64,000 nucleotides of DNA from Alphaproteobacteria bacterium (GTDB lineage Bacteria > Pseudomonadota > Alphaproteobacteria > MPNO01 > UBA830): assembly GCA_964291215.2 (NCBI GenBank), contig OZ219791.1:992001-1056000 (forward strand), read 5' to 3'. The translations under genes and the position numbers were made by a program. Positions 29,443 to 62,936 of the stretch are shown piece by piece (the first letter of the stretch is position 1; each line of letters opens with the position of its first letter). The notes beneath the pieces were generated by a model. That model worked only from the letters and a program-made list of their open reading frames with translations, made no database searches and had not been told where the DNA came from.

Positions 29443-31769
29443 AACCGCCGCCCTTCTGTGCTGGATGCCCGAACTCGGTAGCGTCGGCAGCCTTGATCGG
29501 GGTGGCGCCGATGGCTGACGACCACGGTGCCCGGCACATCCGCGGCGGGCGCAGAAGGCCACGCGATCTCCTGTTCATAGCCGCAATCTCGGCGGCACGC
29601 TTCAACGCAGATCTGGTGTTCGAACGCCTCGAGACCGCCGGCAAGCAAGGTCGCGATTGTCGCCGTGATGCGCAACGTGCTGGCGAACACCTTAGATGCG
29701 ACAGCAGCGTTGCTGGTCGCCCGAAGCACCGATGAGTGAGCGAAGGAGACCCCCTCATGGCTCTCACCCCTGCCGAGAAGCAGCGCCGTTATCGGGAACG
29801 CTGCAAATACCCGCCCACGGAAAGCCCTGTCGTTCCCGTGCGCAACGCTGGCGCGACGCGGTGGCTCGGTGCATTGCAGGAGCACTGTTGGGGCAGTCTC
29901 GACAATCTCCCCGCGCGACACGGCTTGCGGAGAATGTCTGCAGATCATTGTCGAGGCCGGCATCGAGGCTCTCGAGGAGATCGAACCGCCGCGCGGCTAC
30001 GGACGGGACACCCGGAACTCCATTGAACATGGTAACGTTATCGTAACTGCTCACCCCCTGGTTCCGGCTTGATGTCGGGGTAGAGCAACGAACGGGTTTT
30101 CGTGGAGGTTTGACACTGCAGGCCGATTCGTTTAGTGGTGGTTATCGAGAACGACGGGGACCGGCAGTGAGCTACTTTGGATCGAAGGCGACGAGCGGGC
30201 TGTGCCATCGGAGGCGGCGCGCTGATGAAGCGCAAGGCCGGGCAGCGGAGTACCGGAAGATGCCGCCGGGCGAGCGCCAGGCGATGCTCGCGACGATCAT
30301 GACCGTCGAGGCCGGGTGATGGCGACGGGCGGCGCGCGAGGAGTTCGAAGCGGCCAAGACTGCGGCGCTGCCGGCAAGGTGGCGGAAGAGGCCGTCATCC
30401 GCGTCCTCGTCATCCTGCTCGACATCCTCATCGTCGTCCTTCTGGAGAAGACCACGCACGAGCCGAAACTCCGGTCTGCCGCCGTCACAGACGGACAAGA
30501 GCGTGCCGGAAGCAACGGTAAGGGCCCGAAGCCGAACCGGCAGATGGGCGACAACCTGCGCAAGATCATCGTCGAGGAGACGGTCGCGGCCTGCGACGCC
30601 TGCGGCGCCGACGGCCCCGTCGATCGGGAGCGCCGCACGACATCGTGTTCGAGGTCGTCGAGCGCCGCGCCGAGATCAAGGAATGCCCGAAGTGCAAGGC
30701 CCGGTTCCCCGACAACATCCCGTGCAGTACGGCATCGGCATTCAGGCCCTCGTCATCAACCTGCTGGTCGCCCAAATGCTGTCCCTGCGCCGTCGCGCTC
30801 GTGCAGGCGATCTCCGGCATCAAGCTCTCCGAGGCCTCGGCTATGCTTTCACGATGCGTCATGGGAGGAGGCTGCCGTGGCGCACCTCCTGCAACGCCCG
30901 ATGTCGACGATTTCGGATCAACGGCAAGTGGCTTCATGTCGTGGGACCCTGACGTGCAAGTTCCCGCACCGCAAGCGCGGGCAAGAGATCGGCCCGTGCT
31001 ACAAGGGCGTCCTGGGCCTCGTACATGGGCCAGTGTAGCCACCAGCTGTGCGGAGCCACCTACTGCGCGAACTGACCTTTGTCGTCGAGGCTACCGCGCG
31101 ACTGATGAAGAGCCTGCTCCGCGAAGTCTGCCACAAGATCAACAAGAGCGCATCCAAGACCCTGAACGGGGCCGACCGCCGGGCCGTGCACAAGCGCTAC
31201 CGCACCATCAGGGCGCCAAGGAACTGCCCGACATCCCGCCGAAAGGAAAACGTGGACGCAAGTCCGACGCGCACAACCTGCACGAACGTCTCGTGAAACA
31301 CGAAAACCTGCGCTTCATAGACGACCCCGATGTCAGCTTCACCAACAATGCCGGAGAACAGAAGATCAGGATGGCAAAGGTCAAGGTGTCCGGATGCTTC
31401 CGCTCCACGCAAAAGCATGGTGCCGGGGCTCGAGCTACCTCACCTCCATGGCCGCACTCGGCTACAACCCACTCGTCGCCACCCAGATCGCCCTCGACGG
31501 AAAAGCCGCAGACATCATCAACGAGCACCACGACCAATCAGAACCCAACTAGGGGTGAGTAGATACACGTTATCATGCCCGGGGACGCTGGGCGGCAAGG
31601 TGGCCGCGCTCACGTGACCAATGGACGGCAACCCGCCGCCGGGACCACAAGCTGCATGTCGCCTCGCTCGCAGGACATCGACAAGGCGGAACCCCGGACC
31701 GTCTGTGGACAACCACGGAAAACATCGCCGCGGACACCCGCAAAAACCTTGCCAGGAAACATGGATGCT
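29443..31769 (+). mobile_element. IS110 element copy C, 5'-truncated and interrupted by IS66
   Basis: WMPELG and RHIRGGRRRPRDLL fragments, accessory ORF, and right end ATGGATGCT followed by CG, as in copies A and B. Confidence 0.8.
30043..31566 (+). mobile_element. IS66 (ISBst12-like) degenerate element with MTase passenger, copy 1
   Basis: TIRs GTAACTGCTCACCCC/GGGGTGAGTAGATAC; 8-bp TSD ACGTTATC (30035-30042, 31567-31574); FTNNAGEQKIRMAKVK.SGCFR. Confidence 0.9.
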
Positions 31770-31786
31770 CGTTCAGGGTCTTTGAT

Positions 31787-33443
31787 CAAGGTGATCTCAT
31801 GCTTGTTGATGTGATCGGAGTCCTGATCGCGGCGCGGGTCGACGCGTTCGAGGCTGCGATTTTGAGATTTGCTGACGCGCTGTTGCGGCGCGGGGCACGA
31901 TTGGTCGGCGTATCCGGAGCGAGCGAGAGGCCTGCCGGGCTCGAAAGCCTGCGGTTTCTGTCGGGGAGAGAGGCGCGGTCAGCCGGGTCTTGTGATTGCG
32001 TGCAGGACCTGCTTGCGCTTGTCGCCATGGTGGCGTCGACGAAGCTGTTGAAGGGTTTGCGCAGCTTGCGCTTGTTGTGGATGATGACGGCGATTGCGAG
32101 GGTGATCGCGTTGTTTGCGGGCGCGTTGCCCTTGACCATCAGTCCGCGCGACGGGTCTCGACGATCAGCCTCGCGGGTGGTGTGGAGCGCATCGAGGGTG
32201 AGCAGACGGCCGGCAACCGGTGCCGTCTCGAGCGCGGCGTGGACGGCAGCGATCTCCCCGTCGTGACAGTTGAGGACCGAATACCGGCCAGCGAGACCGT
32301 CTCGTAATGATCCTCGCCGGTGCGCTTGCCGTCGACCGCGTTGCCGACCTGCGGCTGCGCGCCGCATCCTCGATCCATCCCGGGTCGGTGTTCTGCAGCA
32401 CCCGGTGCACGGTCGATCTGGAGACCGGCTTGTTCCTGTTCTTCCACGCTGCTCCAGCTCCTTCTGCGTCGTAGTGCGCCACCGCGCCGGTTCGCAAGCC
32501 GCGCCATCACGCACAGCACCGAGGCGATGCCCCTGCGCGCGTCGGAAAGCGCCCCGAAGTGCTAAATCGAGCGCAACTCCTGCGCCGACCAGCGTCGCCC
32601 GCAACTCCCACGCCGCAGGAAGCGGCGAACGATCCCGCGTCACGACGCAGCGGAAACACGTAAGGATCCTTCGCCTCCCCGGTCGGCGCCCGCTGGCGCG
32701 CGCATGGCTCCTGCCAACGCACTCCCGGTTCGCCGCCTTGTACATGGTGCCGCTGAACTTCGTCGGCAAGACAAACTTCTCCGCAACAAGCAACGGCAGC
32801 CTTCCGGTCGCCGCCGCACCATCCGCGACAACGCAAACGAGGCCCGGAAACGACCACCAGGAACAACAAACCTCGTGTTGTTCCCGGCAACCGCCTGAAC
32901 TGTTCCTCGCGGCGCCAGCCAATCCAACGGTCCCGCGGTGCGCAGCAGGACCATTCTGTTGTCGCGATCGGCGGCGGACAACCGTGTCAGAGTGGCCGTT
33001 CTTGAAGTTGGTGGCACCGTCTCAAGGTCGGAACCGACATATTGACAACGAAATCCGCCCCCGAATGGACTTCCAGATCTGCCTACAACGCCCCTCGTCG
33101 GACGAAACCGGAAAAAAGAAGAGCCCTGCGGTGCGTAGCCGAGGGCGCCCGTCTGCCAGCCCGCAGCGCCAATCCACCGCCCGCGCCAGGTGAACACGCA
33201 GACCTCGACCGGCAAACTGCTTGAAACCAGGATACCGTCAACCGCACGATTCCAGCGACATCAGGCCGCGCAAGGCGCACAACCACATCCCGGAGCGCAA
33301 AACCCTCCGGAGTCGTCTCAAAAAAATCCGCTGCCGCCACGACAACGGATACTGCGCCGCTTCACAAAAAGTCAGCGAAAATGCGAATCATCCTGAACAA
33401 GCAAAACCGCCCCTTCCAACAAACCTGGCGTGGGATCGTCGTG
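31787..33443 (-). mobile_element. DUF4338 plus ISAs1-type transposase remnant
   Basis: LLTLDALHT, AVDGKR and FSGTMYKAAN; ends CAAGGTGATCTCATGC and GCGTGGGATCGTCGTG. Confidence 0.7.
32946..33128. mobile_element. MITE family A, copy 2
   Basis: Homologous to 5710-5892; 10-bp duplication CGGTGCGCAG/CGGTGCGTAG; absent from the homologous segment near 62500. Confidence 0.85.
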
Positions 33444-33456
33444 CACTAGTTATCAT

Positions 33457-33490
33457 TAGTGTTGACAGGTCAACACTATAGGGTTAGCGT
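33457..33490 (+). promoter_or_regulatory. Putative sigma70 promoter with palindromic operator upstream of tctC
   Basis: Perfect IR TAGTGTTGAC-AG-GTCAACACTA overlapping TTGACA-N17-TAGCGT. Confidence 0.6.
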
Positions 33491-33551
33491 TAGCGCCTAA
33501 ATTAATGAAAAGCGCCGGATTTGGTTCAATACGACAGGGAGTTACTCCTAA

Positions 33552-34502
33552 ATGAAATATAAATTCAAACTGTTGGTCAGCGTCTTTGCCCTGACCCTTA
33601 TGGCAACGGAAGCGTTGGCGGCGGACTGGACACCGCCCGGTTCGATTAAAATGCTGATTGCCTTTCGGGCCGGTGGCGGCGCCGATACGCAAGCGCGCCT
33701 TATCGCCGAAGCCCTTGAAAGTAAGATGGGCTGGAAGTTCATCCCTGAGCAAGTCACCGGCAAGGGCGGCGTCAACATGCTCAACGCCCTTTCCAAGCAG
33801 CCCAATGACGGAACCGCCATCGGCATGGCCGTCACGGAATCCCTCGGCTACAACTTGGCGACGTCTAAATCCCTGCTCAAAGCGTCCAGTTTTACCGGCC
33901 TCTCGACCACGGCCGGTTTCCAGTTGGGCATCATCGGCCGGACCAAGGATGGCTGGAAAACCATGCGCGACGTGATCGCGTCGGCGAAGGCGGGAAAGAA
34001 AATCCGGCTTGGCACGATGAGCCCCCGGCTGGCCGATCTGACGTTTCTGCTGGAGAAGGCCAACGGCGTTAAATTCAATATCGTGTCCTACCGGGGCGGA
34101 ATAGCGGTCTTGAACGCCATCAACGCGGGTGATGTGGATGTCGGCTATGTTGCCGGTCCGCAGGCCAAAGGCGTCAAGGCCGGGGATTTGGTCGAGCTGG
34201 CATCGGCCCTCTCCAAACCGTTGAACGCCACGCCGAGTGCGCCGACGCTCAGCGACTTGGGCGTTAATTTCAACGCGGACGGCCAGTTCGTCTTTGTCGG
34301 CCCCGGCGGAATGCCGGCCGCGGTGCAGGACGCCTTGGGTAAAGCCATCGCCGGGGTTGTGACCGACCCGGATCAACAGGTCGCGAAGATCATCAAGCGG
34401 GTCTTCGGCGGGGCAATTACGATTACGGGCAAGGAGCTGGACGCCCACTTGCAGCAAGGATACGCCGACGCCGGCAAACTTGCGAAGGCCGTCAACCAGT
34501 AG
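33552..34502 (+). CDS. TctC-family substrate-binding protein
   Basis: Signal peptide, IAFRAGGGADT, GKGG, SYRGG and AINAGDVD. Confidence 0.88.
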   Translation: MKYKFKLLVSVFALTLMATEALAADWTPPGSIKMLIAFRAGGGADTQARLIAEALESKMGWKFIPEQVTGKGGVNMLNALSKQPNDGTAIGMAVTESLGYNLATSKSLLKASSFTGLSTTAGFQLGIIGRTKDGWKTMRDVIASAKAGKKIRLGTMSPRLADLTFLLEKANGVKFNIVSYRGGIAVLNAINAGDVDVGYVAGPQAKGVKAGDLVELASALSKPLNATPSAPTLSDLGVNFNADGQFVFVGPGGMPAAVQDALGKAIAGVVTDPDQQVAKIIKRVFGGAITITGKELDAHLQQGYADAGKLAKAVNQ

Positions 34503-34513
34503 AACGCTGTGAT

Positions 34514-34706
34514 CACGATGATCCCACGCTGCTAATTCGGCGACGACTGGCGAGATTTTTTCAGTTTGCGTCGCGCTGCAATCTTGCCGCCAAGGCTCGA
34601 TAGGACCTTCTCGGCACGAAAATTGCGATCAAGGGGGCGATCTGTGATGACGCGAGCCCCAACGCATTCCGATTTCGCGTCTCCGAATTAGCATGGGATC
34701 ATTGTG
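34514..34706. mobile_element. MITE family B (193 bp), copy 1
   Basis: TIRs CACGATGATCCCA/TGGGATCATTGTG; 9-bp TSD CGCTGTGAT (34505-34513, 34707-34715). Confidence 0.85.
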
Positions 34707-37993: not shown

Positions 37994-38359
37994 TGCTGGA
38001 ACCGCTCGCCCCCAAGCGGAGCATGGAAGCAAATGGTATCTGCTCACCCCTCCGTAGAGGCGGGTTTGGTGTGTTTGTGTTGTGCATTTTGATCATGTCA
38101 GCGGCGTTTCCGGCGAGTGCGATCTGGATGGCGACGAGTGGGTTGTAGCCGAGTGCGGTCATGGAGGTGAGATAGCTTGAGATTCGGCACCAGGCCTCGG
38201 CGTGGAGTCGGGTTCGGAAGCATCCAGACCCCTTGACCTTTGCCATCCGGATTTTCTGCTTGCCGGGGTTGTTGTCGATCATGAAGCGCAGGACGTGTTG
38301 TCGGTTGGATAAAGCGGCGGGATTTCGGCGATTCGCCGCGCTTTTCAGGATCGTGTTTC

Positions 38360-39841
38360 GTAACTGCTCACCCCCTGGTTCCGGCTTGATGTCGGGGTAG
38401 AGTAACGAACGGGTTTTCGTGGAGATTTGACACTGCAGGCCGATTCGTTTAGTGGTGGTAATCGAGAACGACGGGGACCGCCAGTGGGCTACTTTGGATC
38501 GAAGGCGACGAGCGGGCTGTGCCAGCTGCTTCCGGGGCTCCAGCCCCCGCATGATCTGTATGTGGAAACGCATCTCGGAAGCGGCGCGCTGATGAAGCGC
38601 AAGGCCGGGTGATGACGACGGGCGGCGCGCGAGGAGTTCGAAGCGGCCAAGACCGCAACGCTGCGTGCGGCCGGCAAGGTGGCGGAAGAGGCCGTGATCC
38701 GCGTCTTCGTCATCCTCATCGTCGTCCTTCTGGAGAAGACCACGCACGAGCCGGAACTCCGGTCTGCCGCCGTCACAGACGGACAAGAGCGTGCCGGGAG
38801 CAAGGGCCCGAAGCCGAACCGGCAGATGGGCGACAACCTGCGCAAGACCATCGTCGAGGAGACGGTCGCGGCCTGCGACGCCTGCGGCGCTGACATCGAC
38901 GGCCCCGTCGATCGGGAGCGCCGCACGACATCGTGTTCGAGGTCGTCGAGCGCCGCGCCGAGATCAAGGAATGCCCGAAGTGCAAGGGCCGGTTCCCCGA
39001 CAACATCCCGTGCAGTACGGCATCGGCATTCAGGCCCTCGTCATCAACCTGCTGGTCGCCCAGATGCTGTCCCTGCGCCGTGCCGTTGCGTTCGTGCAGG
39101 CGATCTCCGGCATCAAGCTCTCCGAGGCCTCGGCTATGCTTTCACGATGCGTCATGGGAGGAGGCCGCCGTGGCGCACCTCCTGCAACGCCCGATGTCGA
39201 TGATTTCGGATCAACAGTAAGTGGCTCCATGTCGTGGGACCCTGACGTGCAAGTTCCCGCACCGCAAGCGCGGGCAAGAGATCGGCCCGTGCTACAAGGG
39301 CGTCCTGGGCCTCGTACATGGCAGTGTAGCTACCAGCGGCAGCCACCTGCTGCGCGAACTGACCTTTGTCGTCGAGGCTACCGCGCGACTGATGAAGAGC
39401 CTGCTCCGCGAGGTCTGCCACAAGGTCAACAAGAGCGCATCCAAAACCCTGAACGACGTCGGGCGCAAGCGCTACCGCACCATCAGGGCGCCAGGGAACT
39501 GCCCGACATCCCGACGAAAGGAAAACGTGGACGCAAGTTCGATGCGCACAACCTGCACGAACGTCTCGTGAAACACGAAAACCTGCGCTTCACAGACGAC
39601 CCCGACGTCAGCTTCACCAACAATGCCGGAGAACAGAAGATCAGGATGGCAAAGGTCAAGGTGTCCGGATGCTTCCGCTCCACGCAAAAGCATGGTGCCG
39701 GGGCTCAAGCTACCTCACCTCCATGGCCGCACTCGGCTACAATCATCACGTCGCCACCCAGATCGCCCTCGACGGAAAAGCCGCAGACATCATCAACGAG
39801 CACTATGGCCAATCAGAACCCAACAAGGGGTGAGTAGATAC
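38360..39841 (+). mobile_element. IS66 (ISBst12-like) degenerate element with MTase passenger, copy 2
   Basis: Same TIRs as copy 1; 8-bp TSD CGTGTTTC (38352-38359, 39842-39849). Confidence 0.9.
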
Positions 39842-40327
39842 CGTGTTTCTTTACTGTTGTCAGGTCCTGTTGTCGCGGTTTCAGTGTTTGTCTGTTTGTT
39901 TCTGTGGATGCCGCCCGTTTTCTTCCCTGTTGTCATTTCGGTCCGGTTCCGGTTTTTCTGCCGGCATGTGATCCGGGCTCCTGAGGGTTGTCGGGAGGGT
40001 TCTGGTGTTTCGCGGGATCGTCTGCCTTCCCTGTCGCCCGGGTCCTGTTGTCCGGGCCCGGGCGCCCTCGCGACGCCAGCACGAACAGATCAGCCTCGCC
40101 GCAAGGAGCCTTTCCAACGTCAGGACCATCGTCCTCGCAGGACCACGACGAGGCCGGAGAACGTCAGGTCGAAACCCTGCGCACAAGGCTGAAGGTTCCC
40201 CCTTGCCTTTGAGTACCCCCTTGGGTGGCCCCTTGTGGGGTCAGGGTGGTTCGGTAGCGCTTGCGCACGGCCAGGCGGTCAGCCTCGTTCAGGGTCCTGG
40301 ATGCGCTCTTGTTAACCCTGTGGCAGG

Positions 40328-40500
40328 CAGGATGATCCCACGCTGCTAATCCGGCGACGACTGGCGAGATTTTCTCAGTTTGCGTCACGCTGCAATCGTG
40401 CCACCAAGGCTTGATGGAGCCTTCAAGGAGGCGATCTGTGATGATCCGAGCCCCAACGCATTCGGATTTCGCGTCTCCGAATTAGCATGGGATCGTCGTG
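40328..40500. mobile_element. MITE family B, copy 2
   Basis: CAGGATGATCCCA...TGGGATCGTCGTG with 8-bp TSD GTGGCAGG. Confidence 0.8.
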
Positions 40501-41352
40501 GTGGCAGGTCTCGCGCAGCAGTTTCTTCATCAGGCGTGCTCAGCGGTAGCCTCGGCGATGAAGGTCAGTTCCCTGAGCAGGCGGGACCCGCACAGCTGGC
40601 GGGTGCATGGATCGCAGGCCAGCCATGCGGCCCAGCAGTCGTGGGCCAGCGTGCCGGTGTAGCTGATGCCGATCTCCTCGATCGCCTGCCTGCCGCGCCT
40701 GCGATGCAGGAACCTGCACGTCAGGGATCTGGTGTGCCAGGCGAACTGGCAGAAGGCAGGGGGTGGAAGTCCCCCGGAACGAAGGAGTAACCAAACCGCG
40801 TTTCTCCGCGAGCCGTGCGTCGGTTCCCGCGAGGGGGCAGGCGAAGCGTCGGTAGCGGGGCTGATGGGCACCGAAAAGACGATGATCCGGGGTGCCGAGG
40901 TTTTCGGATCGGTCGAAGGCAACATCGCAGGCATCGATTTGGTGAGATGCCGGCGCGCCTCGCGGTGTCAGAGAACCCGTCCGTACGTCTTCTGTCGGGA
41001 CCCTGGGAGATCTTCAAGCTGTCCCGCCTGTCGGGACCGCGCAGGGAAAGGAGAAAGCCGAAGCCTGTGATGAACGGTTTGAAGAAGGGGCCCTGTGAAG
41101 GCGGCGAACAAGGGAGCTTCTGCGGAGTTGCCGGAGGAAAGGGCCTCGAGCTCGTCCCGGGACAACGACCGCGCAAACTGCGCAGCTGCGAGGCAGCCTT
41201 TCATGTTCGCAAGCTCGGCGAGGACATGGATCTCGTCCTCGTGAACGATCGTGCGCGCCGGCATGTCCGGTGCGCTCCGCGCCATGACCGTTCATCGGGC
41301 AGAAAGTTCACATCTGGAGCTCGGCTCCTCTCTTGAGAAGAATACAAAAAAA

Positions 41353-50701: not shown

Positions 50702-51151
50702 CCGGCGGCTGATCGTGGAAACCGGCGGTCGGGTCCGCCTGCCGGAGTGGTTTCACCGGGAGATCGAGTGCGATCATGTGGTGCTGATCCCGCGGTAGCG
50801 TTGAATCTCGGTGACCGGGGTGGTCCGGACGGCAGGTTTGCAACTGTCGGGACAGTTTCATGATGCGAATCAGCTGTTCGTAAAGGCAACGGGGATCGCT
50901 GGCGCCAGCGCAATGGCGACAAGGCTCCCGGTTTCTTCCAAATGGGCAGAGGAGTCTCACGCTAAATTCTGTTTGTTTTTTTCAAGGCAGTACCTAGGTG
51001 TTGCGGGGGCGCGGGTTGGTGCGAGGAGATTTTTTACAGTTTTCGCTGGCTTTCCTGCACTGGAGTTGTCATAGTGCGGGGATGTCGGTTCACAAGCACA
51101 TCGCGTCCTGTCCGATACACGTCGCAGCTCCGGAAGGGTTTCGCCTGTCCG

Positions 51152-52444
51152 AGCATCCATGTTTCTTGGCAAGGTTTTTGCGGGTGTCTGTGGTGATGTT
51201 TTCTGTGGTTGTCCACAAGCGGTGTGGGATTTGCTCTGCGAGCGAGGCGACATGAAGCTTGTGGTCCCGGCGGCGGGTTGTCGTCCATTGGTCACGTGAA
51301 CGCGGCTACCTTGCCGTCCCCGGGCATGGTAACGTGACCGTCGTCAAGACAGTCCCGATCGCGGCGCTGCCTCTCGGCAGGGGTGAGGGCCATGAGGGTG
51401 GTCTCCTTCGCTCACTCACCGTGCCGGTGCTTCAGGCGCCCAGCAACGCTGCTGTCGCAGCAAGGTGTTCGCCAGAGCTTGCGCATCACGGCGACAATCG
51501 CGACCTTGCTTGCCGGCAGTCTTGAGGCGCACCAGGTCCGCGTTGAAGCGTGCCGGTTGCGGCCATGAACAGGAGATCGCGTGGCCTTCGGCGCCCGCCA
51601 CGGATGTGCCGAGCACCGTGGTCGTTGGCGCCACCCAGATCAAGGCTGCCGACGCTGCCGAGTTCGGGCATCCAGCAAAGAAAAGCCGCGGCGGTCACCG
51701 GATCGAGGTCAGGATGGCGTACCTCTGCTCGGGATCACCGGCGATCACCGCTTTGATCGCCGCGCCGGCAATGCGGTCATCGAGATCGGCCGCCGAGGCC
51801 CTTGTGACGGTCTCGCCATCCACCTCATCTGCCACCTGCTTGGCGTCGACAAGCGCGGCACCAAGAGATCCTCCAGGCTCTTGAGGAAGGCATCCTGAGG
51901 GGCCACAGGCTCGAGATCGCCCAGCCGATCTTGGCGTCGACGCGGTTGGCCCTTCGCCTCGGCGAAGCCCGCAACGGGTTGACGAGAATAACCTCGAAGC
52001 CCCGGTCATGAAGACACTGGTGAACCTTGCGGTGATAGCGGCCTGTCGCCCACCACCCGGCTCACCCCGAGGCCGCGAAGCCACTTGCCCGCCAGCTCGT
52101 GGCGTCGTTCGCAAAACAATGCGCCAGATGTCCAGACTGGCTGACCCCTGCTACTACCTTGACCATCGTCCCTTGTTCCTCGCCTTACGATGATACGGGT
52201 TCAAACCCAGGCATCCCCACAGCGAGGGACGTCAAGGGAGGTTGGCCGACCAAACTCGGTCGCGGCTCTGTCAAGGTCGAAACGGCAACCTCCGCGGAGA
52301 TCGTTTGATCCCCTGTGCGTGTTCGCTCAGGGGAGCGGAATCTCTCTGCAACCATAAACCGGACGCTCTCCCACAGATCCACATTTTCCCGCCCCAACTG
52401 CTGTGGATGATTTCATCATCAAGGGGACAAAACCTAGTCATATA
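51152..52444 (-). mobile_element. IS110 element copy A
   Basis: On the minus strand CAACCT|TATATGACTAGG...ATGGATGCT|CGGAC; inverted homolog of 53624-55013. Confidence 0.9.
52176..52351 (-). ncRNA. putative IS110 bridge RNA (copy A)
   Basis: Same stems as copy B; left target guide TTTCGACCT, right target guide CCGAG; boundaries approximate. Confidence 0.65.
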
Positions 52445-53623
52445 AGGTTGAGGTTCGCGAAGCCTGAGGAGATACCGCTGCGTTGATGGACGACTATCTC
52501 GGGTTTCGCCGTCTGGCGGGGCTGCGCCATGTTGCGTCCTTCAGGGGGCAGTGGTCTGGCCGGGGCCTTCAAGTGCCGCGACCGGTGGCTGGAAGCCGGA
52601 GCAGCAGGGCTTGATCTGACAACACGCGACTGCTTGCGGCGCCGGGAACGTTTCCGAACCTTGCCTCCTTCTTTCTTGCGACGCGGCGGCTGGCCGACAA
52701 TTGGGCCTACGGCCACCAGGTGGCGGAGACGTTCTGCGATCCGGCGCGTTTTGCGGGCACAAGGCGGCGGGCTGGCGTGCCAGGGGGTTTGCCCGCGCCA
52801 ACGGGCGCTGCACCGACCCCCATGGCAAGGAGATTTTCGTTGTGCGGCGCGACGGCTACTGTCGCAGGCGCTGCGGTGGCGCCGCCTGCCTCCTCGCTCC
52901 CCGGGGTTCCGAGGTGATGCGTTCGCTGCACGACGAGTTGGCGGTGATCGAGGACTTCCGCCGCGCAGGAAGCACACGGTGTGCTCACGTTCTCGCCGAG
53001 CTTGCGAACATGAAGGGCTGCCTCGCAGCTGCGCAGTTCGCACAGTCGCTGTCCCGGGACGAGCTCAAGGCCATCGGCGGAACCCGAGGACGGAGCTGCG
53101 CGAGCCGCCCTCCGGGGCGACCCTCCACCGGGTCATCCGGTCGATCGATCCCGAGGCGCTCGAGGATGTGCTCGGCCGCGGGCTCGCCCGGGCGCTTGCC
53201 GCCGACGGCAAGCGCATCCGCGGCGCCAACCGCAACGGCCACCACGAGACCGTGGCCCTCACGCCTCCGGCGCACCCTTCGCGCTGTTGAACTTCGACGA
53301 CGGCGAGCTGGCGGCCACCTCCTCGAGCGCACCGATGTCCGCGGCAAGGTGATCACCCGCACGATGTCGGCGACGCTGATCACCCGGTGCTGCGGCGCAG
53401 ACCACGTCTTCCCGGTCAAGGGCGCCCGAAACCTTCGACGGCATCGACCGGGAGACGGATGGTCGCTTCAAGGAGGCAAGGCCCGCCTCGAGCAGCGCGT
53501 GCCGCTCGAGGATCTGATCAACTACTCCGGCAGATCGCCCGCATCAAGCGCTACCGCGAGCCGCCGGGAAAGAGCGCCAGCGGCGCAGCGAGCGGCAACG
53601 ACTGCACCGGTACATCATCACCT

Positions 53624-55013
53624 TATATGACTAGGTTTTGTCCCCTTGATGATGAAATCATCCACAGCAGTTGGGGGCGGGAAAATGTGGATCTGTGGGA
53701 GAGCTATGGTTGCAGAGAGATTCCGCTCCCCTGAGCGAACACGCACAGGGGAGCGGGGATCAAACGATCTCCGCGGAGGTTGCCGTTTTGACCTTGACAG
53801 GGCCGCGACCGAGTGTGGTCGGCCAACCTCCCTTGACGTCCCTCGCTGGATGCTTGGGTTTGAACCCGTATCATCGTAAGGCGAGGAGCAAGGGACGATG
53901 GTCAAGATAGTAGCAGGGGTCAGCAAGGCCAGTCTGGACATCTGGCGCATTGTTTTGCGAACGACGCCACGAGCTGGCGGGCAAGTGGCTTCGCGGCCTC
54001 GGGGTGAGCCGGGTGGTGGGCGACAGGCCGCTATCACCGCAAGGTTCACCAGTGTCTTCATGACCGGGGCTTCGAGGTTATTCTCGTCAACCCGTTGCGG
54101 GCTTCGCCGAGGCGATGGGCCATCTGGCGAAGACCGACCGCGTCGACGCCAAGATCGGCTGGGCGATCTTGAGCCTGTGGCTCCGCCTTCCTCAAAAGCC
54201 TGTAGGATCTCCTGGTGCCGCGCTTGTCGACGCCAAGCAGGTGGCAGATGAGGTGGATGGCGAGACCGTCACAAGGGCCTCGGCGGCCGATCTCGATGAT
54301 CGCATTGCCGGCGCGGCGATCAAAGCGGTGATCGCCGGTGATCCCGAGCAGAGGTACGCCATCCTGACCTCGATCCGGTGACCGCCGCGGCCCTTCTTTG
54401 CTGGATGCCCGAACTCGGCAGCGTCGGCAGCCTTGATCGGGGTGGCGCCGATGGCCAGCGACAGCGGCCAGCACCACGGTGCTCGGCACATCCGTGGCGG
54501 GCGCCGAAGGCCACGCGATCTCCTGTTCATGGCCGCAACCGGCACGCTTCGACGCGGACCTGGTGCGCCTCAAGACTGCCGGCAAGGCCCACAAAGTCGC
54601 GATTGTCGCCGTGATGCGCAAGCTCTGGCGAACACCTTGCTGCGACAGCAGCGTTGCCTGAAGCACCGGTGAGTGAGCGAAGGAGACACGGCCCTCACCC
54701 CTGCCGAGAGCGCGATCGGGACTGTCTCGACAGTCTCCCTCTACGACACGACTTGGGGAGAATGTCTGCAGATCATCGTCGAGGTCGACATCAAGGAGAT
54801 CGAACCGCCTTGGGACACCTGGAACCCGGACGGTCACGTGCCCGGGGACGGCAAGGTAGCCGCGTTCACGTGACCAATGGACGGCAACCCGCCGCCGGGA
54901 CCACAAGCTTCATGTCGCCTCGCTCGCAGAGCAAACCCCACACCGCTTGTGGACAACCACAGAAAACATCACCACAGACACCCGCAAAAACCTTGCCAAG
55001 AAACATGGATGCT
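53624..55013 (+). mobile_element. IS110 element copy B
   Basis: ATCACCT|TATATG...ATGGATGCT|CGCTC; recombinase remnant from ATG 53898 (MVKIVAGV.SKASLD, VNP, LAKTDRVDAK, RHIRGGR). Confidence 0.9.
53710..53890 (+). ncRNA. putative IS110 bridge RNA (copy B)
   Basis: 11-bp 5' hairpin, then two internal-loop domains whose loops match the target and donor sequences; boundaries approximate. Confidence 0.72.
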
Positions 55014-55486
55014 CGCTCGATGCGCAACACGCGTCGCCAGAGGAACTGCTGCGGCCGCGGGCCGTGGAAAACGTGAACCACCGAGACTGCGTCTTCGGTG
55101 AGGACGCCTGGCTGACCCGCAAACCGCGCCAGCCTCGACAACATCGCGCTCGCGGTGATCTTCCCGACGCGAGAGCCTCGCCGAAACACGGCGGCGGCTC
55201 GACCGCCGGGAAGCCGTCGCAGCCCTGAGCACCAATGGTGTCCGGCCGATTCCCGGACGCCGCCCACATCCCGAAAACAACCCGCCCACGCGCCGATAAC
55301 GCCGCCGGCGACGACCGCGGACGGCCCCGAAGCCGGAAAACCCGGCACGCTGTGAAACCTCCAGACAGCAGAAGACAGCAAAATTGAATGCAGCATGAGA
55401 AACGCCTGTCCAAATGGGTAAACGGCGTTGATCGCGGACGGATGAGGCTCCACAATGCTTGGTATTCAATGTGCCGGGAGCAGAAA

Positions 55487-56555: not shown

Positions 56556-59500
56556 CTATTCCGCGGCCTGGGGCACGGCCTTGGCTTTCCGCATCCGCCT
56601 CTGTTCAACGATTCCCACGGTCATCGACATCATCGGTGGCACTATCGCCATGGTGAGAACCGCCGAGAGTGCCAGTCCGCCAAGGACCACGGATCCGAGA
56701 CCGCGGTAGAGTTCGGAGCCGGCTCCCGGGAACAACACCAGTGGCAGCATGCCGACGACCGAAGTCAGGGTTGACATAAAGATCGGACGGATCCGGTTGG
56801 CCGTCGCTGTTTCGATGGCCGAGATCACGCTGTGGCCGTCGACCCGTATGTGGTACAATGTCTGGTGAACGAGCAGTATGGCGTTGTTGACCACAATGCC
56901 GACCAGAATGACGAATCCCAGCATGGTCAGCATGTCGAGGGGCTGGTTGACGTAGATGTTGAGCAGCGCGAGTCCGCCCAGCCCGCCCGCGGCGGCAACC
57001 GGGACGGAAAGCATCACAACCCAAGGGTACAGGAAGCTCTCGAACAGTACCGCCATCACCAGATAGACGATCACCAGAGCGAGTAGCAGGTCCATCACTA
57101 TGTGATTCCAAGTCGTCAGCAGCTTGTCGGCGCTGCCTGACATGCGAACCCGTACCCCCTCGGGCAGGCCGCCGACGCGATCCGGCGTGAGCACCTTTTC
57201 CTCGATCAGGTTCATCGCTTCCTGAAGCGGCATCGTGCGTTCCGGACTAACTCGGATGGTCATGGTCCGCGCCCGGTCAATCCTCTGGATCTCGGTCGGT
57301 CCCGTGGTCACGGCAACGTCTGCCAGGTTGCCGACGGACACTATTCGGCCGTCCGATGCGACCACCGGCAGTGCGCGGATCGCCTGGGTGGACTCCCTGT
57401 CGATGTCGGGACCCTTGAGAGTGAGGTCAATTCGCTTACCGTCGACGGTGATCTTGGCGACGCGGACTCCATCGTTGAAGGCGTCGACCGAATCGCCGAG
57501 TTCCCGGGCCGACAGGCCGTTGTCCGAGAGCCGCACGCGGTCCGGGGTGATCCTGACCTCCGGTTCACCAAGCGTCAGCGCTGGACGCGGGCGCACGCGA
57601 TGCCCCTTGTTCGGGGGCATGGCGCTGCGGGTCGCGAAGAAGATGTCGCGACCGGCACTGTAGACGGTCTCGAGATCCGGTCCGGCGATCTCGATGTCTA
57701 TGGAGCGGCCCGAACCTATCGATCGGCCGAATAACGAGGGTTGGAACACGAAAGCCATCACGCCCGGCTCGCGCCGCGCGGGAGTTTGCAGGATTGGTAT
57801 CAGCTCATGCGCCTTGCGTGGGTCCACATGGGTGGCAGCGATGAACATGCGGCCGAGACGGGCAACGTAGAAGAAGCGGTCGATCTTGCGGTCTTCGGGC
57901 GGATTGGCCTTTGCTTCGGCGCCGCGTGACCAGTATTTCCTTGTGGCATCCGAGACGTTCTCGGCGATCGCGTGATTGGTGTCGATGTTGTAGCCGGCAG
58001 GGGGAAGGATGAAACCGATCGCGAAATTGCGGTTGCCGGTCGGCAGGTAGTCGAGCTTGGGCATGATCGCGATGGTGATGATGGACGCACCGGCAACGAT
58101 GGCGGCGACGAGCACGAGCGCGACGGGCTTGTTCTGGGTCACGAAGCGCGCGTAACGAGCCCAGAACCTGACGAACCACTTCCCGAAACCGTCGATGACG
58201 GGAAGCCGCACCCGGAAGTCCTCGTGGTCTATTCGGGCGCCGAACAGGCTCTTGGACAGGGCTGGGATAAGGGTGACGGCGACGAGCAGAGACAGCATCA
58301 CCGAGACCGAAATCGCGACCGCTATGTCGCGGAACAACTGGCCCACCTCAAGATCCATGATTAGAATGGGAATGAATACCATGACCGTGGTCAGCGCCGA
58401 GACGAGGACGGCCGGCCACACCTGCTGCGCTCCGTCATAGGCCGCCTCGGCGGCCGACCGGCCCTGCTGGCGCATCCGGAAGATGTTCTCGAGAACCACG
58501 ATCGCAGCATCGACAACCATCCCGACCGCGAATGCTATTCCGGCAAGGCTGATCACGTTGAGCGACCGGCCGAGGACGGCCATGGCGACGAAGGAGCCAA
58601 TGACCGATACCGGGATCGCCATTGCAACCACCACTGTCGGCCGCCACGAACGCAGGAAGATCATCAGTATGATGATCGCCAGGATGCCCCCGACATAGAT
58701 GTTCTGGATGACGAGATCGATCGAGGAGTTGATGTAGTCGGTCTCGTCGTAGACCTGCTCGACGTTCAGTTGCTGCCTCTTCAGCGGTCCGTCCGCCAGT
58801 TCGGCCACGACTTGGCGGACCTCGGCCATCGTCTTGATGACGTTGGCGCCCTGCTCGCGCGTGACGTTGAAACCGAGCGCCGGCTCGCCAAGCTGGCGCA
58901 GGCGCGCCTGCGCCAGCTTGTAGCCGAGCGAAACCGTGCCGATGTCGCGCAACTCGACGCGGCCGATGCCGCGGCGGTTTGAATCGGACCGCAGGACCAC
59001 GGACTCGACCATCTGCGTGGTGGTAAGCTCGCCGTCGGTCCTGACCACGTAGCGCCGCTTGCCTTCCTCGACATCGCCGCCGGTGATCGACGCGTTCGCA
59101 GCCCGGAGGCGGCGCAGGACATCGCTCACCGTCATGCCGTAGCGCGCGAGCGCGTGGGGGGTGACGGTGACGCTCATCTCGCGGTCGGTGTCGCCGAAGA
59201 TGTTGACGCCGGCCACGCCCTCGACCCGTTCGAGCCGTTCCTGGACAACGTTGATCAGGAAGTCGCCGTAGGACGTCATGTCCCGGGTGTTGTCGTCCGC
59301 CCGCGTGAGCACGAACCAGGCGATGGCGTTGTCCTCGGTTCCCGAGGTGGACAGCACCGGTTCGTCAGCCTCGGCCGGATAGCCCGATATACGGTCGAGG
59401 CGATTGGCGACGAGCAGCAGGGCGCGCTCGAAATTCACTCCCGGGGAAAACTCTAGGGTGATCGTGGCGCGACTGCGCTGCGCACGCGAGATCATCTTGT

Positions 59501-59732
59501 TCACGCCCTCGATGCCCTTGAGTTCGTCCTCTTGCGGATTGACGATCTCGCGCTCGATTTCGGCCGGCGCCGCACCGCGCCAGTTGGTCTTGACGATGAT
59601 TACCGGCTGGCGAACATCCGGTGCCATCTGGATGGGAATTCTTTGCAGGGCGACATAGCCGAACAGGATGATCATCAACACCAGCGCAACGACGGCGATC
59701 GGGCGTTGAATCGAAAGGCGGATGATGTTCAT
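56556..59732 (-). CDS. RND efflux permease (AcrB/AcrD/AcrF family)
   Basis: 1058 aa; GMVVDAAIVVLENI, GIVVNNAILLV and RIRPIFMSTLT. Confidence 0.95.
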   Translation of the reverse strand: MNIIRLSIQRPIAVVALVLMIILFGYVALQRIPIQMAPDVRQPVIIVKTNWRGAAPAEIEREIVNPQEDELKGIEGVNKMISRAQRSRATITLEFSPGVNFERALLLVANRLDRISGYPAEADEPVLSTSGTEDNAIAWFVLTRADDNTRDMTSYGDFLINVVQERLERVEGVAGVNIFGDTDREMSVTVTPHALARYGMTVSDVLRRLRAANASITGGDVEEGKRRYVVRTDGELTTTQMVESVVLRSDSNRRGIGRVELRDIGTVSLGYKLAQARLRQLGEPALGFNVTREQGANVIKTMAEVRQVVAELADGPLKRQQLNVEQVYDETDYINSSIDLVIQNIYVGGILAIIILMIFLRSWRPTVVVAMAIPVSVIGSFVAMAVLGRSLNVISLAGIAFAVGMVVDAAIVVLENIFRMRQQGRSAAEAAYDGAQQVWPAVLVSALTTVMVFIPILIMDLEVGQLFRDIAVAISVSVMLSLLVAVTLIPALSKSLFGARIDHEDFRVRLPVIDGFGKWFVRFWARYARFVTQNKPVALVLVAAIVAGASIITIAIMPKLDYLPTGNRNFAIGFILPPAGYNIDTNHAIAENVSDATRKYWSRGAEAKANPPEDRKIDRFFYVARLGRMFIAATHVDPRKAHELIPILQTPARREPGVMAFVFQPSLFGRSIGSGRSIDIEIAGPDLETVYSAGRDIFFATRSAMPPNKGHRVRPRPALTLGEPEVRITPDRVRLSDNGLSARELGDSVDAFNDGVRVAKITVDGKRIDLTLKGPDIDRESTQAIRALPVVASDGRIVSVGNLADVAVTTGPTEIQRIDRARTMTIRVSPERTMPLQEAMNLIEEKVLTPDRVGGLPEGVRVRMSGSADKLLTTWNHIVMDLLLALVIVYLVMAVLFESFLYPWVVMLSVPVAAAGGLGGLALLNIYVNQPLDMLTMLGFVILVGIVVNNAILLVHQTLYHIRVDGHSVISAIETATANRIRPIFMSTLTSVVGMLPLVLFPGAGSELYRGLGSVVLGGLALSAVLTMAIVPPMMSMTVGIVEQRRMRKAKAVPQAAE

Positions 59733-61495
59733 GGTCGCCCGGTCTCCGTCGGGGCAAGCCTGTTGGCGATGACGTTCACATCAGCGCCCGGAGGCAGGGC
59801 TTCGTTTCCATAGGTAATGACCTTGTCGCCCGCCTTAAGGCCCGAGAGCACGATGAAGCGGTTGCCGATGGCGTCGCCAAGCCTGATCTGCCTCGGAAAC
59901 GCCTTGCCGCGCTGCGCGATATAGACGCTTCGGTTGTCGCCGCGATGGACGATTGCGTCCTTGTGGACCGTGGTAACCTCCCTGATCTCGCCGATCGGAA
60001 CCATCACGGTGACGCTCTGGTTCACGGCAAACCGCGCCGAGGCGTCGGCGAACTTCGGGATGAAACGGACCGGTCGGGTTCGCGTACGTGGATTCTCGTT
60101 GGGGATCACGGCGCGGACCGCGCCGCGCAGCCAGGTTCCGTTGTCAAGCTGAAGGCGGACCCGGACGCCCTTCCTCAGCGCGGCGACCCGATCGGACGGC
60201 ACTTCGGCTTCGACTTCGATCTCCTTGTCGTTGATCAACCTGACCACCGGCGTCCCGGTGCCGACATAGGCGCCGATCTCGACGTGCCGTTCGATGACGG
60301 TTCCGTCGTAGGGTGCGCGTATTTCGGTGTTGTCGAGATCGATCTCGATGCGCTTGAGATCGGCCCGCGCTTCACGCTCGAGCGAGCGCCGTTCCTCGAC
60401 CACCGCGCGGCGCGTCCGCACATCGCTCTCAAGGTCCTCGAAGCGTGCGCGCGAGAACGACGATGATTTCCTGAGCCCCTTCATGCGTTCGAATTCCCGC
60501 TTCTTCTTGGCGAGTTCCGCCTCGGCCGTCTTGACCATATTGCGCCTAGTGGTAAGCGCGGCGGCGAACTTGTCGCGGAGCGCGGTCAAGGATTCCCGAT
60601 GCAGGGTCGCGATGACGTCGCCCCTGCTCACGCGGTCGCCGACTTCAACATCCATCTTCTGCACGGCACCGCTGACGAGGGCCGCGACACTGCCGGCGCG
60701 GCGCGCGACCAGACGCCCGATCACGGGATCTGTCTGCGACTGCGATTCAACGATCACCTCATCGACGCGGACAGGACGCGGCGGATGTCCGCCCGATCGC
60801 GGCGCGGCTCCGGTCCTGCCGGCGGATCGGGCCGGCCCGCTGGCGGCGGGTTTCGGGGCGGGGGCTGCGGTGGTCTTCGGGCATCCCTGTCCGGTGAAGA
60901 AACTGCGGATTTCAGCTCCGTCGAGGGTTCCGGACTTGTTGCAGTCTATGTCGTTGAAGTTTGCGGCAAGCGGCCCGCCGGCCTCGCTGCGATCGATGAC
61001 GCCGTTTCCGTTCGTGTCGCGCTCCTTGGCGCGGCCGCCGAGCGGCGGGGGCTGTGCGACGGCGGGTTTCGGGGCGGGGGCTGCGGTGGTCTTCGGGCAC
61101 TCCTGTCCGATGAAGAAACCGCGGATTTCAGCTCCGTCGAGGGTTCCGGACTTGTTGCAGTCCATGTCGTCGAAGTTTGCGGCAAGCGGCCCGCCGGCCT
61201 CGCTGCGGTCGATGACACCGTTTCCGTTCGTGTCACGCTCCTTGGCGCGGTGGGAAAGCGCCGTGTCCTGGGCGGCCGCCAAACCTGCAGCGGCAACCAG
61301 CAGGATTGCGGCGCAGAAAACGACCGGTCCCGGGCCGGCCGTGCGGCCCGCGGGCCTCGCGACAGGGTTTGTGGTCGGGGTCGCGCCGCTGCGCTGTCCA
61401 TCGGGCCGGCGATCTTGGATTGTCGCCGAAGCGTGGTTCGCGGGTGCGCTGTCCGGATGCCGCGCCGACTTGGATGCCTGCAATGTTTCGCTCAT
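59729..61495 (-). CDS. RND periplasmic adaptor (MFP) with N-terminal tandem EF-hand domains
   Basis: VEVGDRVSRGDVIA, IRAPYDG, TRTRPVR and GLKAGDKVI; four EF-hand loops upstream; start uncertain (open to 61618). Confidence 0.85.
   Translation of the reverse strand: MSETLQASKSARHPDSAPANHASATIQDRRPDGQRSGATPTTNPVARPAGRTAGPGPVVFCAAILLVAAAGLAAAQDTALSHRAKERDTNGNGVIDRSEAGGPLAANFDDMDCNKSGTLDGAEIRGFFIGQECPKTTAAPAPKPAVAQPPPLGGRAKERDTNGNGVIDRSEAGGPLAANFNDIDCNKSGTLDGAEIRSFFTGQGCPKTTAAPAPKPAASGPARSAGRTGAAPRSGGHPPRPVRVDEVIVESQSQTDPVIGRLVARRAGSVAALVSGAVQKMDVEVGDRVSRGDVIATLHRESLTALRDKFAAALTTRRNMVKTAEAELAKKKREFERMKGLRKSSSFSRARFEDLESDVRTRRAVVEERRSLEREARADLKRIEIDLDNTEIRAPYDGTVIERHVEIGAYVGTGTPVVRLINDKEIEVEAEVPSDRVAALRKGVRVRLQLDNGTWLRGAVRAVIPNENPRTRTRPVRFIPKFADASARFAVNQSVTVMVPIGEIREVTTVHKDAIVHRGDNRSVYIAQRGKAFPRQIRLGDAIGNRFIVLSGLKAGDKVITYGNEALPPGADVNVIANRLAPTETGRP
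60844..61250. repeat. Intragenic tandem duplication, 216-bp period, encoding EF-hand pairs
   Basis: 60844-61034 and 61060-61250 are near identical. Confidence 0.9.
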
Positions 61496-61832
61496 CTGCG
61501 ATATTCCCGTCACTGGAGCGTCGGACCTGTCTTGTCGCGCGAACGGATTCCCAGTATGCATTATGGTCCCGAACAACAGGAGCCTCTTTCCGGCAACGCC
61601 ACCGACATCGTTTGCCACGGATGAGGCGAAACCGCCGTTCTTCGGGCTCCGCCAAGTTTGTGGTCATCCGCTGCCGAAACCGTCATCTCACCAGCTTAGA
61701 GCATATTATATGGTGGAGTTCCCGTATACGGACAATTCCTCATGTTAAATTTTGTTACATTCGGGATCTGGAGAACATTACTGAGCCCCCGAAGATCGAT
61801 ACACGACAGCGAAGTTCCGGCGTCGTCGGATC

Positions 61833-62197: not shown

Positions 62198-62931
62198 CAC
62201 GGTGATCCCACGCCAGGTTTGTTGGAAGGGTCGGTTTTGCTTGTTCCAGATGATTCGCATTTTTGTCGGCTTTTTGTGAAGCGGCGCAGTATCCGTTGTC
62301 GTGGAGGCAGCGGATTTTTTGAGACGACTCCGGAGGGTTTTGCGCTCCGGGATGTGGTTGTGCGCCTTGCGCGGCCTGATGTCGCTGGAATCGTGCGGTT
62401 GACCGTCATCCTTGGTTTCAAGCAGTTTGCCGGTCGAGGTCTGCGTGTTCACCTGGCGCGGGCGGTGGATTGGCGCTGCGGGCTGGCAGACGGGCGCCCT
62501 CAGCTGCGCACCCGTTGGATTGGCTGGCGCCGCGAGGAACAGTTCAGGCGGTTGCCGGGAACAACACGAGGTTTGTTGTTCCTAGTGGTCGCCGGGCACG
62601 ACGACCCCACGCTGCTAATCCAGCGGCGACCGGCGAGATTTTTCGGTCTGCGTCGCGCTGCAATCGTGCCGCCAAGGCTCAATGAGACCTTCTCGGCGCG
62701 AAAAATTGTGATCAAGAGGCGATCTGTGATGACGCGAGCCCCAATGCACTCGGATTTCGCGTCTCGGAATCAGCATGGGATCGCCGGGTGTTTCCGGGCC
62801 TCGTTTGCGTTGTCGCGGATGGTGCGGCGGCGACCGGGAGGCTGCCGTTGCTTGTTGCGGAGAAGTTTGTCTCGCCGACGAAGTTCAGCGGCACCATGTA
62901 CAAGGCGGCGAACCGGGAGTGCGTTGGCAGG
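62198..62931 (+). pseudogene. Left end and DUF4338 remnant of ISAs1-type element
   Basis: Inverted homolog of about 32700-33443; LGFKQFAGRGL and RWIGW. Confidence 0.75.
62597..62782. mobile_element. MITE family B, copy 3 (right end eroded)
   Basis: Homologous to 34514-34706; flanked by TCGCCGGG on both sides. Confidence 0.75.
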
Positions 62932-62936
62932 AGCTA

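Follow-up and report, generated by a model that had tools for sequence, protein, structure and literature searches.

The bridge-RNA locus and the element that carries it

The DNA analysed here (the window) is a 64,000-nt stretch of contig OZ219791.1 of the alphaproteobacterial assembly GCA_964291215.2. The segment at 53624–53897 forms the left end of an IS110 element of the IS621 type, now decayed, and, as an earlier note on this DNA had proposed, it almost certainly constitutes a bridge-RNA locus. The element, referred to below as the focal copy, lies inside a multi-copy repeat, between a left CT core at 53622–53623 (+), which is shared with the target, and a right CT core at 55012–55013 (+). 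A genome-wide BLAST search with the region (6.15 Mb in two contigs) detected 65 left ends and 71 right ends, which are sharply bounded at a CT dinucleotide; all 65 left-end copies are decayed. The earlier note had described two eroded copies, and was thus right about the erosion and far too low in its count. Empty alleles of the host repeat retain a single CT without any duplication, and short-read contigs from two of four runs (X1 and X3) join position 53621 directly to 55012, from which it follows that insertion adds one CT and duplicates nothing. The ends are therefore of the IS110 type, with a CT core on both sides, no target duplication and no long terminal inverted repeats. Membership of the IS1111 group, in which the seekRNA lies in a long right end and the subterminal inverted repeats are long, was rejected: the guides are located in the left end, and the donor site is flanked by an inverted repeat of only 3–4 nt.

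The non-coding left end (53624–53897, +), whose boundary is common to the 65 left ends and whose layout is the same in intact relatives, contains (i) a 5′ hairpin (53723–53756, +; arms 53723–53733 and 53746–53756), (ii) a second small hairpin (53753–53774), (iii) a target-binding loop domain (53775–53831, +), eroded in its 5′ arm and inner hairpin, and (iv) a donor-binding loop domain (53838–53896, +), which carries an 8-nt deletion in the focal copy. It is followed by an IS110 recombinase pseudogene (53898–54672, +) with many deletions of 5–14 nt. Of the two recombinase domains only PF02371 is detectable in this copy (above the cut-off at 54433–54672, together with a piece of NF033542), and the alignment shows that the DEDD motif has lost the codons for its first Asp and its Glu.

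Searches of the genome detected no intact member of this recombinase family, and the majority consensus of 57 copies did not yield a full open reading frame (ORF). Two intact PF01548 genes of approx. 430 aa are present (L001 and L002, at G000:C1:480856 and 884303); a tblastn search with P0001, an intact relative from the same genus (315 aa), gave no match to either of them. P0001 passes PF01548, PF02371 and NF033542, and thus combines a DEDD RuvC domain with a Tnp domain. In its alignment to the IS621 recombinase (8wt6, E 4e-27), the residues that PMC11208158 names as catalytic are matched by D9, E51, D93, D96 and S233. When used as a query, P0001 retrieved 79 loci from alphaproteobacterial metagenome-assembled genomes; 66 of these were used, while 13 (mostly matches without the N-terminus) were left out, and guides were readable in 60 of the 66, from 12 genomes. 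Six of 60 related genomes gave merely short, weak DNA matches, P0001 matched one of 25 other genomes of the family, and relatives of the element occur in Paracoccaceae, far from this host.

Structure and donor guides of the predicted RNA

The left-end locus is structured, with a 5′ hairpin and two internal-loop domains (fold z −4.08 and −5.01); the region 53712–53897 folded better than 200 of 200 shuffled sequences (z −4.08). No family was found at the locus in an Rfam search. Stem covariation was analysed in 26 aligned sequences, using a structure drawn from two of them, which favours it. Paired cells amounted to 92.8% in the outer helix of the target loop, 95.9% in the target inner hairpin and 97.7% in the donor outer helix. 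Two-sided changes were observed in 6 of 15 pairs of the target outer helix and in 4 of 10 pairs of the donor outer helix; overall, they affected 12 of 34 pairs and 50 cells, compared with 14.6 in shuffled alignments and at most 21 in slid controls. Hairpins similar to the 5′ hairpin were recognized by eye in relatives; the covariation counts cover the two loop domains.

The motifs named in the earlier note (the hairpin arms, TTTTGACCT, CCGAG, TGGATGCTT, TAAG, CCTCGC and GCGAGG) are all present, each at the position assigned to it, and the arms of the target-binding domain, for which it had given no coordinates, were placed at 53775–53782 and 53824–53831. The 5′ arm lacks 6 nt in every listed target loop except that of C1_1320147. 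Two details of the proposed architecture had to be revised. The pairing CCTCGC/GCGAGG, taken for the closing stem of the donor-binding domain, was created by the 8-nt deletion in the focal copy and is ruled out as the ancestral stem; relatives keep CCCTTGC/GCAAGGG plus TCCT/AGGA. The right target guide, described as the 5-nt CCGAG, instead pairs over 7 nt (GACCGAG, 53807–53813, +). The left target guide is TTTTGACCT (53786–53794, +), whose final 7 nt track the target, and a handshake dinucleotide is predicted, at a position deduced from PMC11208158, directly after the right target guide (53814–53815).

The donor guides match the joined ends of the element. The left donor guide, TGGATGCT (53847–53854, +), is identical to the final 8 nt of the right end, core included, and is nearly invariant, so that no covariation is visible for it. 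The right donor guide (53870–53880, +), for which discontinuous pairing is predicted, tracks the start of the left end: TAAG occurs with CTTA here, and CGAG with CTCG in relatives. Within the genome, all four copies starting with TGTATG carry ACAAG, compared with 3 of the 36 others (p = 4e-4; 40 of 65 copies readable). This guide is followed by a predicted handshake GC (53881–53882), of which the G stands opposite a near-invariant C at target position −3, an arrangement that would agree with the handshake model as deduced from PMC11208158.

Several variants of the RNA were also noted. In the clade with the left guide TTCCGTCCT (18 copies), the target loop has lost 6 nt from its 5′ arm and 5 nt from its 3′ arm; together these deletions leave a continuous 11-bp stem and look compensatory. 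In L062 (CBDATU) the left core is CC rather than CT, and CC also terminates the left guide. The final left-guide position is occupied by C or A in many relatives that retain the T of the core.

Guide diversity and match to landing sites

A readable target loop is present in 64 of the 66 loci of the copy set. These loops contain 20 distinct guide pairs when compared over 9 + 9 positions, and 18 when only the pairing positions are considered. Written as left guide/reverse complement of the right guide against the site, examples are CCGTCCT/CTCGGGA against CCGTCCT-CGGGA, TCGACCT/CTCGGAC against TCGACCT-CGGAC, TTGACCT/CTCGATC against ATGACCT-CGATC, TTCACCT/CTCGCTC against ATCACCT-CGCTC, TCCGTCT/CTTGCGC against GCCGTCT-TGCGC, TCCGCCT/CTCGTCC against TCCGCCT-CGTCC and TCGGCCT/CTCATGA against ACGGCCT-CATGA. 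Most targets are other repeats.

In order to compare guides with sites by permutation, we clustered the sites on the flank outside the guide zone and scored non-core positions; two sites came out as two clusters each, and the end of another element probably accounts for one left flank; all of these were retained. Own guides matched the left side at 62.3 of 85 positions, versus 45.6 after shuffling (17 sites), and the right side at 63.0 of 75 positions, versus 44.1 (15 sites), with p = 1e-5 (the permutation floor) in both cases. Counting each distinct guide once gave 39.4 of 55 versus 27.2 on the left (11 guides, p = 1.7e-4) and 41.8 of 50 versus 29.3 on the right (10 guides, p = 5e-5). The 12 other genomes yielded 72.6 of 100 versus 38.8 on the left and 72.9 of 90 versus 34.2 on the right (p = 1e-5); it counts against these results that the p-values are overstated, because kin are not independent. 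The target is tracked at positions −7 to −3 and +1 to +5 only, with −9, −8, +6 and +7 at chance, and the tracked positions are those of the 14-mer geometry described in PMC11208158. The guides of the focal copy fit its own site at 7 of 10 variable positions, and those of its siblings at the same host site at 8 and 9. In six related genomes, the own guide was best or tied in 38 of 45 copies.

Covariation of the loops with flanks and ends across copies and relatives, through which the earlier note had proposed to check its reading, was therefore found, and the IS621-type locus with the guide positions it named is borne out by stems and guides that covary in this genome and in 12 others. Its three reconstructed targets are also correct. 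By contrast, a single system programmed for an ACCTCG-centred target is rejected, as flanks and guides vary together among the copies. Other copies have left flanks TCCT, GCCT, CCCT or GTCT and right flanks CGG, CGA, CGC, CGT, CAT or TG, and mostly matching, different guides. Flanks without the ACCT/CG consensus had been listed as evidence to the contrary, and formally they are; yet they support the bridge model because the guides change with them. Nor is this a separate kind of system; the mechanism appears to be the standard one.

Several guides per genome occur in relatives too: CBDCSZ has five pairs in 10 copies, CBDCSE four in four and CBDATU four in nine, and CAXXWA, CBDCBG and OZ244919 have two guide pairs each. 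In CAXXWA the second guide differs by a single base, with no gain in fit.

Filled and empty sites in the host repeats

The focal copy interrupts a decayed, ISAs1-like multi-copy repeat, part of which precedes it (52447–53621, +) and which resumes after 55013. This repeat gave only a weak NF033564 match (E 0.078, below the cut-off). It is present in 38 genome copies, of which 3 are filled and 18 read ATCACCT-CGCTC uninterrupted. For one guide, 13 copies of the perfectly matching host A are filled, and merely one of 12 empty copies is a perfect match; with the same guide, host C, which has one mismatch at +5, is filled in 2 of 32 copies. The number of perfect 12-mers left per guide ranges from 0 to 21.

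In four host trees, filled hosts were not clustered in comparison with shuffled labels (9/8.7, 3/2.9, 6/6.2 and 8/7.9 changes), and in the tree for the site of the focal copy starred branches force three separate insertion events. Repeated insertion is thus favoured over amplification of one composite.

Evolution of the guides

A tree based on single-nucleotide polymorphisms (SNPs) of 57 copies, with the guide columns left out, resolved three clades; the remaining 8 of the 65 left ends had no near right end or were interrupted. The guides evolve fast. Parsimony required 3.5 steps per variable guide column (ten columns) versus about 0.74 elsewhere, i.e. approx. 4.7-fold more, although the tree and the step counts are approximate because the copies are mosaic. 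All four bases were seen in 3 of 10 guide columns versus 2 of 1282 other columns. One step separates 11 of 11 left and 7 of 10 right 5-mers from another variant, and among relatives an ORF divergence of 5% can go along with changes at 8 of 10 guide positions. This is evidence that the guide positions are under strong diversifying pressure.

Among coding SNPs (150 residues mapped), 30 of the 47 that are common to at least three copies affect a third codon position, versus 17 of 62 singletons (p = 2e-4). Purifying selection has therefore acted on the recombinase between sublineages, which split while it was still under selection, and decay came later.

Origin of the guide diversity

In our opinion, the guides were probably retargeted by stepwise mutation and selection for new targets, which would have matched each copy to its landing site. 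By analogy with IS621, the excised circle would join the −35 element of the right end to the −10 element of the left end and transcribe the RNA; a promoter of this kind at the circle junction boosts both the bridge RNA and the recombinase, and it drives insertion (PMC13626964, PMC11208160). The recombinase would then pair the RNA with a 7+2+5 target and with the donor junction, and insert the element at CT. Each circle would mainly use its own RNA: the guide versions and their insertion sites suggest that identical donor loops do not scramble guide and cargo, in which case an RNA would act mostly on its own circle. Because of this cis preference, a guide mutation would stay linked to the copies that it places. 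Once the matching sites in a host repeat were exhausted, mismatch-tolerant insertion and point changes could open other repeats, and the scarcity of matching sites would reward new guides aimed at them. Later recombination, gene conversion, occasional trans action and the 5–8 nt deletions described below may have blurred the record; the focal copy's poor fit would be a result of this. Trans action, gene conversion, half-match insertion (10.64898/2026.08.31.748434) and recombination between copies are possible contributors that are indistinguishable here.

Several observations weigh against this explanation. Of the 37 copies here that have both flanks, just 20 are matched best, or equally well, by their own guide; C1_1771141, L029, L053, L064, L066 and L070 fit the guide of another copy far better, and guide–target coupling must therefore be leaky or overwritten. 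L019/L007 and L021 match their own guide on one side only, and in several copies the left and right flanks come from different sites. The copies are mosaic, with 23 SNPs segregating in both main clades versus 38 near-fixed differences. Half-guides of some intact relatives differ at 3–5 of 5 letters when the rest of the RNA differs by 1–3%, so that single steps are not visible there. The host trees are weakly resolved (3–8 starred branches each), and the inner hairpin of the donor loop, as aligned, is not supported (48.5% paired).

The block-like differences raise the question of whether guides might be rewritten from the target, i.e. whether an imperfect insertion is followed by templated repair, or by a step linked to the recombinase, that transfers flank or target DNA into the guide. 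L022 and L024 differ at 8 of 10 guide positions, compared with 5 of 188 positions in the rest of the RNA and 42 of 851 ORF positions; L030 and L078 differ at 5 of 5 right positions and at 3 of 191 elsewhere; between L062 and L067, one right-guide base follows a one-base difference in the same host site. The graded fit of the three copies at the focal host site (7, 8 and 9 of 10) and the excess of transversions among guide alleles (9 of 19 versus 120 of 503 in the background, raw counts) point in the same direction. We nevertheless regard rewriting as unlikely: neighbouring non-pairing positions do not follow the target, mismatches persist (e.g. T versus A at −7 in sites E, F and G and in the single-copy sites B, I and J), and the variants in this genome form a mostly single-step network. 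Moreover, selection also predicts fast change and excess transversions, and block switches could arise through recombination between copies with different guides. A dedicated re-aiming process, in which the target is copied into the guide loops and DnaA, acting at the three box-like sites described below, licenses copying of the circle, likewise seems improbable; if true, target-to-guide copying would be an adaptation step for bridge RNAs, and new host repeats would be learned rather than found by chance. It is still less probable that the matches stem from shared descent or from several separate invasions, in which a few elements with fixed guides arrived horizontally and multiplied with their hosts, with no retargeting in this genome. 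There are indeed three SNP clades, one of which (18 copies) has essentially one guide, and horizontal arrival itself is likely because the relatives occur in Paracoccaceae; however, the largest clade alone contains several guides, for sites D, E, F, G and H, at a divergence of a few percent, filled hosts are unclustered, with three events forced at the focal site, and the targets are this genome's own repeats.

Stepwise retargeting would be compatible with, and complemented by, a non-autonomous spread of defective copies, each with its own shortened bridge RNA and served in trans by the recombinase of a copy since lost, a process that we consider possible but doubtful. A frameshifting 5-nt deletion is present in 18 of 18 copies of one clade, across different target sites, versus 5 of 34 others, a frameshifting 7-nt deletion shows the reverse distribution (0 of 18 versus 30 of 34), and the opposite-arm 6-nt and 5-nt deletions in the target loop of one clade leave a continuous stem. 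Derivatives of IS110 elements resembling miniature inverted-repeat transposable elements (MITEs) are also known (PMC12288879). On the other hand, 30 of 52 deletion blocks are polymorphic in at least two clades, which fits recurrent hot spots or post-insertion conversion, and singleton SNPs lack the third-position excess, the clade-level SNPs being those that show selection on the protein. Finally, since the approx. 65 copies are near-identical and mosaic, the guide variation could be suspected of being an artefact of assembly from mixed repeat copies. This is very unlikely: public short-read contigs (X1–X3, from one study) share guide substitutions, an alternative guide block and several indels, and agreement with flanks 1.2 kb away would not result from an artefact. 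Because the contigs cannot phase a guide with its right flank, some of the individual mosaics may nevertheless be mis-joined.

Erosion of the copies consists mostly of deletions of 5–8 nt and their multiples (68 of 114 gap types in element copies are of 5–8 nt), and the host repeat around 52447–55380 of the window is similarly eroded. In 30 of 52 blocks the 5–8 nt deletions affect identical positions in more than one SNP clade, and they are often located at short microhomologies; several are present in short-read contigs too, and nearby housekeeping ORFs are intact. Candidate causes are hot-spot end joining, deletion-biased conversion and non-autonomous spread.

Circle-junction promoter and DnaA-box-like sites

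The predicted circle-junction promoter combines a −35-like hexamer in the right end (TTGCCA, 54993–54998, +; TTGAnn in 51 of 52 homolog junctions) with a −10-like hexamer in the left end (TATGAC, or TATGAT in some copies, 53626–53631, +). Promoters of alphaproteobacteria often lack the final T. When the ends are joined, a hexamer starting with TTG, a spacer of 17 nt and a hexamer starting with TATG or CATG are found in all 52 homolog junctions read; at the level of sequence, the element thus has the putative junction promoter of the IS621-like group. No promoter was found in a scan of the linear copy. An end-to-end circle junction was found neither in the assembly nor among the listed contigs of the four runs, which drop rare forms, and the listed sequencing runs included none of RNA.

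The ends also contain sites resembling DnaA boxes, defined as 9-mers with at most one mismatch to the consensus TTATCCACA. The first, TCATCCACA (53658–53666, +), has one mismatch and is present in 60 of 65 left ends. The second (53686–53694, −) is cut by an 8-nt deletion in the focal copy and is perfect in 23 other copies. The third is located in the right end (54948–54956, −). They lie at approx. +38 and +63 after the left core and approx. −77 before the right core. All 29 distinct homolog left ends contain at least one box, versus 0.065 per kb in a 230-kb background, and 23 of the 29 perfect boxes in the genome are situated within 150 nt of a left end. The orientation of the first box varies between lineages. 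These clade-restricted 9-mers flank the predicted circle junction on both sides (L019–L097; L105).

A general IS110 trait was considered and rejected, since among 35 more distant IS110 loci, a set to which IS621 does not belong, paired boxes occur only in L105 (47% identity); L116, L117 and L118 have a single near-match each. Through these sites, host DnaA would probably regulate the junction promoter or help to copy the circle. DnaA acts at the ends of IS50, and DnaA-dependent priming on hairpins is also known. The sites bear on the question of how IS110 circles are copied or timed.

Comparison with known systems

Like IS621 of Escherichia coli with its bridge RNA (Durrant et al. 2024, PMC11208160; Hiraizumi et al. 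2024, PMC11208158; PDB 8WT6-9), the element has a DEDD RuvC domain and Tnp serine (in the intact relative), a left-end RNA with 5′ hairpin, target loop and donor loop, a CT core, no target duplication and a short subterminal inverted repeat (CAT/ATG), as well as a predicted circle-junction promoter, discontinuous right donor guide and handshake positions. It differs in its distant protein (E 4e-27), in its longer left end (274 nt in the eroded focal copy versus approx. 191) with two hairpins and DnaA-box-like sites, in the native right target guide (7 versus 4 nt), and in its targets, for the most part other mobile repeats; every copy in this genome is dead. The passages on IS621 describe covariation across orthologues, in contrast to the approx. 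20 guide versions in one genome found here. ISCro4/IS622 (PDB 9T56; bioRxiv 10.1101/2025.05.14.653916) belongs to the same protein family (E 2.8e-25, a protein-only comparison) and shows the same differences. In the copy-out models for CazIS110-1 and IS621 (10.1101/2025.10.25.684509; 10.64898/2026.08.31.748434), copy-and-paste would explain a high copy number with donors kept, and half-match insertion could explain the one-sided fits. The passages concerned in these two papers do not treat guide evolution, and the word DnaA is absent from their main texts. ISPpu9 and its MITE-like derivative (PMC12288879) are IS110-group elements that target multi-copy repeats and provide a precedent for non-autonomous derivatives; unlike in ISPpu9, there is no evidence here for a separate small-RNA module.

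Thousands of orthologues across genomes had led to the inference that bridge RNAs are programmable, and engineering proved it; how natural guides change targets is not treated in the relevant passages of prior work. A search of titles and abstract starts, in which subscription journals were mostly missing, yielded nothing on within-genome guide diversification or on DnaA boxes in IS110 ends, and the supplements of PMC11208160 may hold such cases or this clade. The basic bridge mechanism is already known; what goes beyond routine is the guide radiation within one genome and the clade-restricted DnaA-like boxes. With approx. 20 guide versions, their insertion sites and many empty alleles, this genome tabulates mismatch tolerance as it occurs in nature, and its copies probably document the step-by-step re-aiming of an RNA-guided recombinase. 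In related genomes with intact multi-guide copies, cis preference, stepwise versus templated change and DnaA dependence are directly testable.

Other features of the window

A second copy of the element, copy A (51152–52446, −), with the left guide TTTCGACCT, lies 1.18 kb away at another site of the same host repeat. The region 50950–55380 thus consists of one host repeat with two oppositely oriented IS110 copies at two target sites, which form 1.3-kb inverted repeats. Paired empty sites approx. 1.14 kb apart, comparable to the spacing of these two copies, occur elsewhere in the genome. A third, interrupted remnant (29445–31769, +) comprises the 3′ part and right end, with the right flank CT-CGTTCAG.

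At left flanks such as CACGCCATATGAC (approx. eight copies, host E), the left junction is often deleted. A short deletion between similar words of the target and of the element start removes it, which would immobilise the copy.

Dense, nested, decayed mobile elements, IS66-like by eye, occupy 29445–34706, 38079–40500 and 62198–62934 of the window, and these clusters point to a genome-wide expansion of insertion sequences. A group II intron D1–D4 fragment (Rfam RF02005, 135.8 bits) is located at 40766–40977 (+). Two tandem 216-nt repeats (60844–61275), 91% alike, lie within the ORF at 59729–61618 and encode EF-hand-like motifs in a protein resembling, by eye, an efflux adaptor; this ORF adjoins an intact gene at 56556–59732, labelled AcrB-like by eye.

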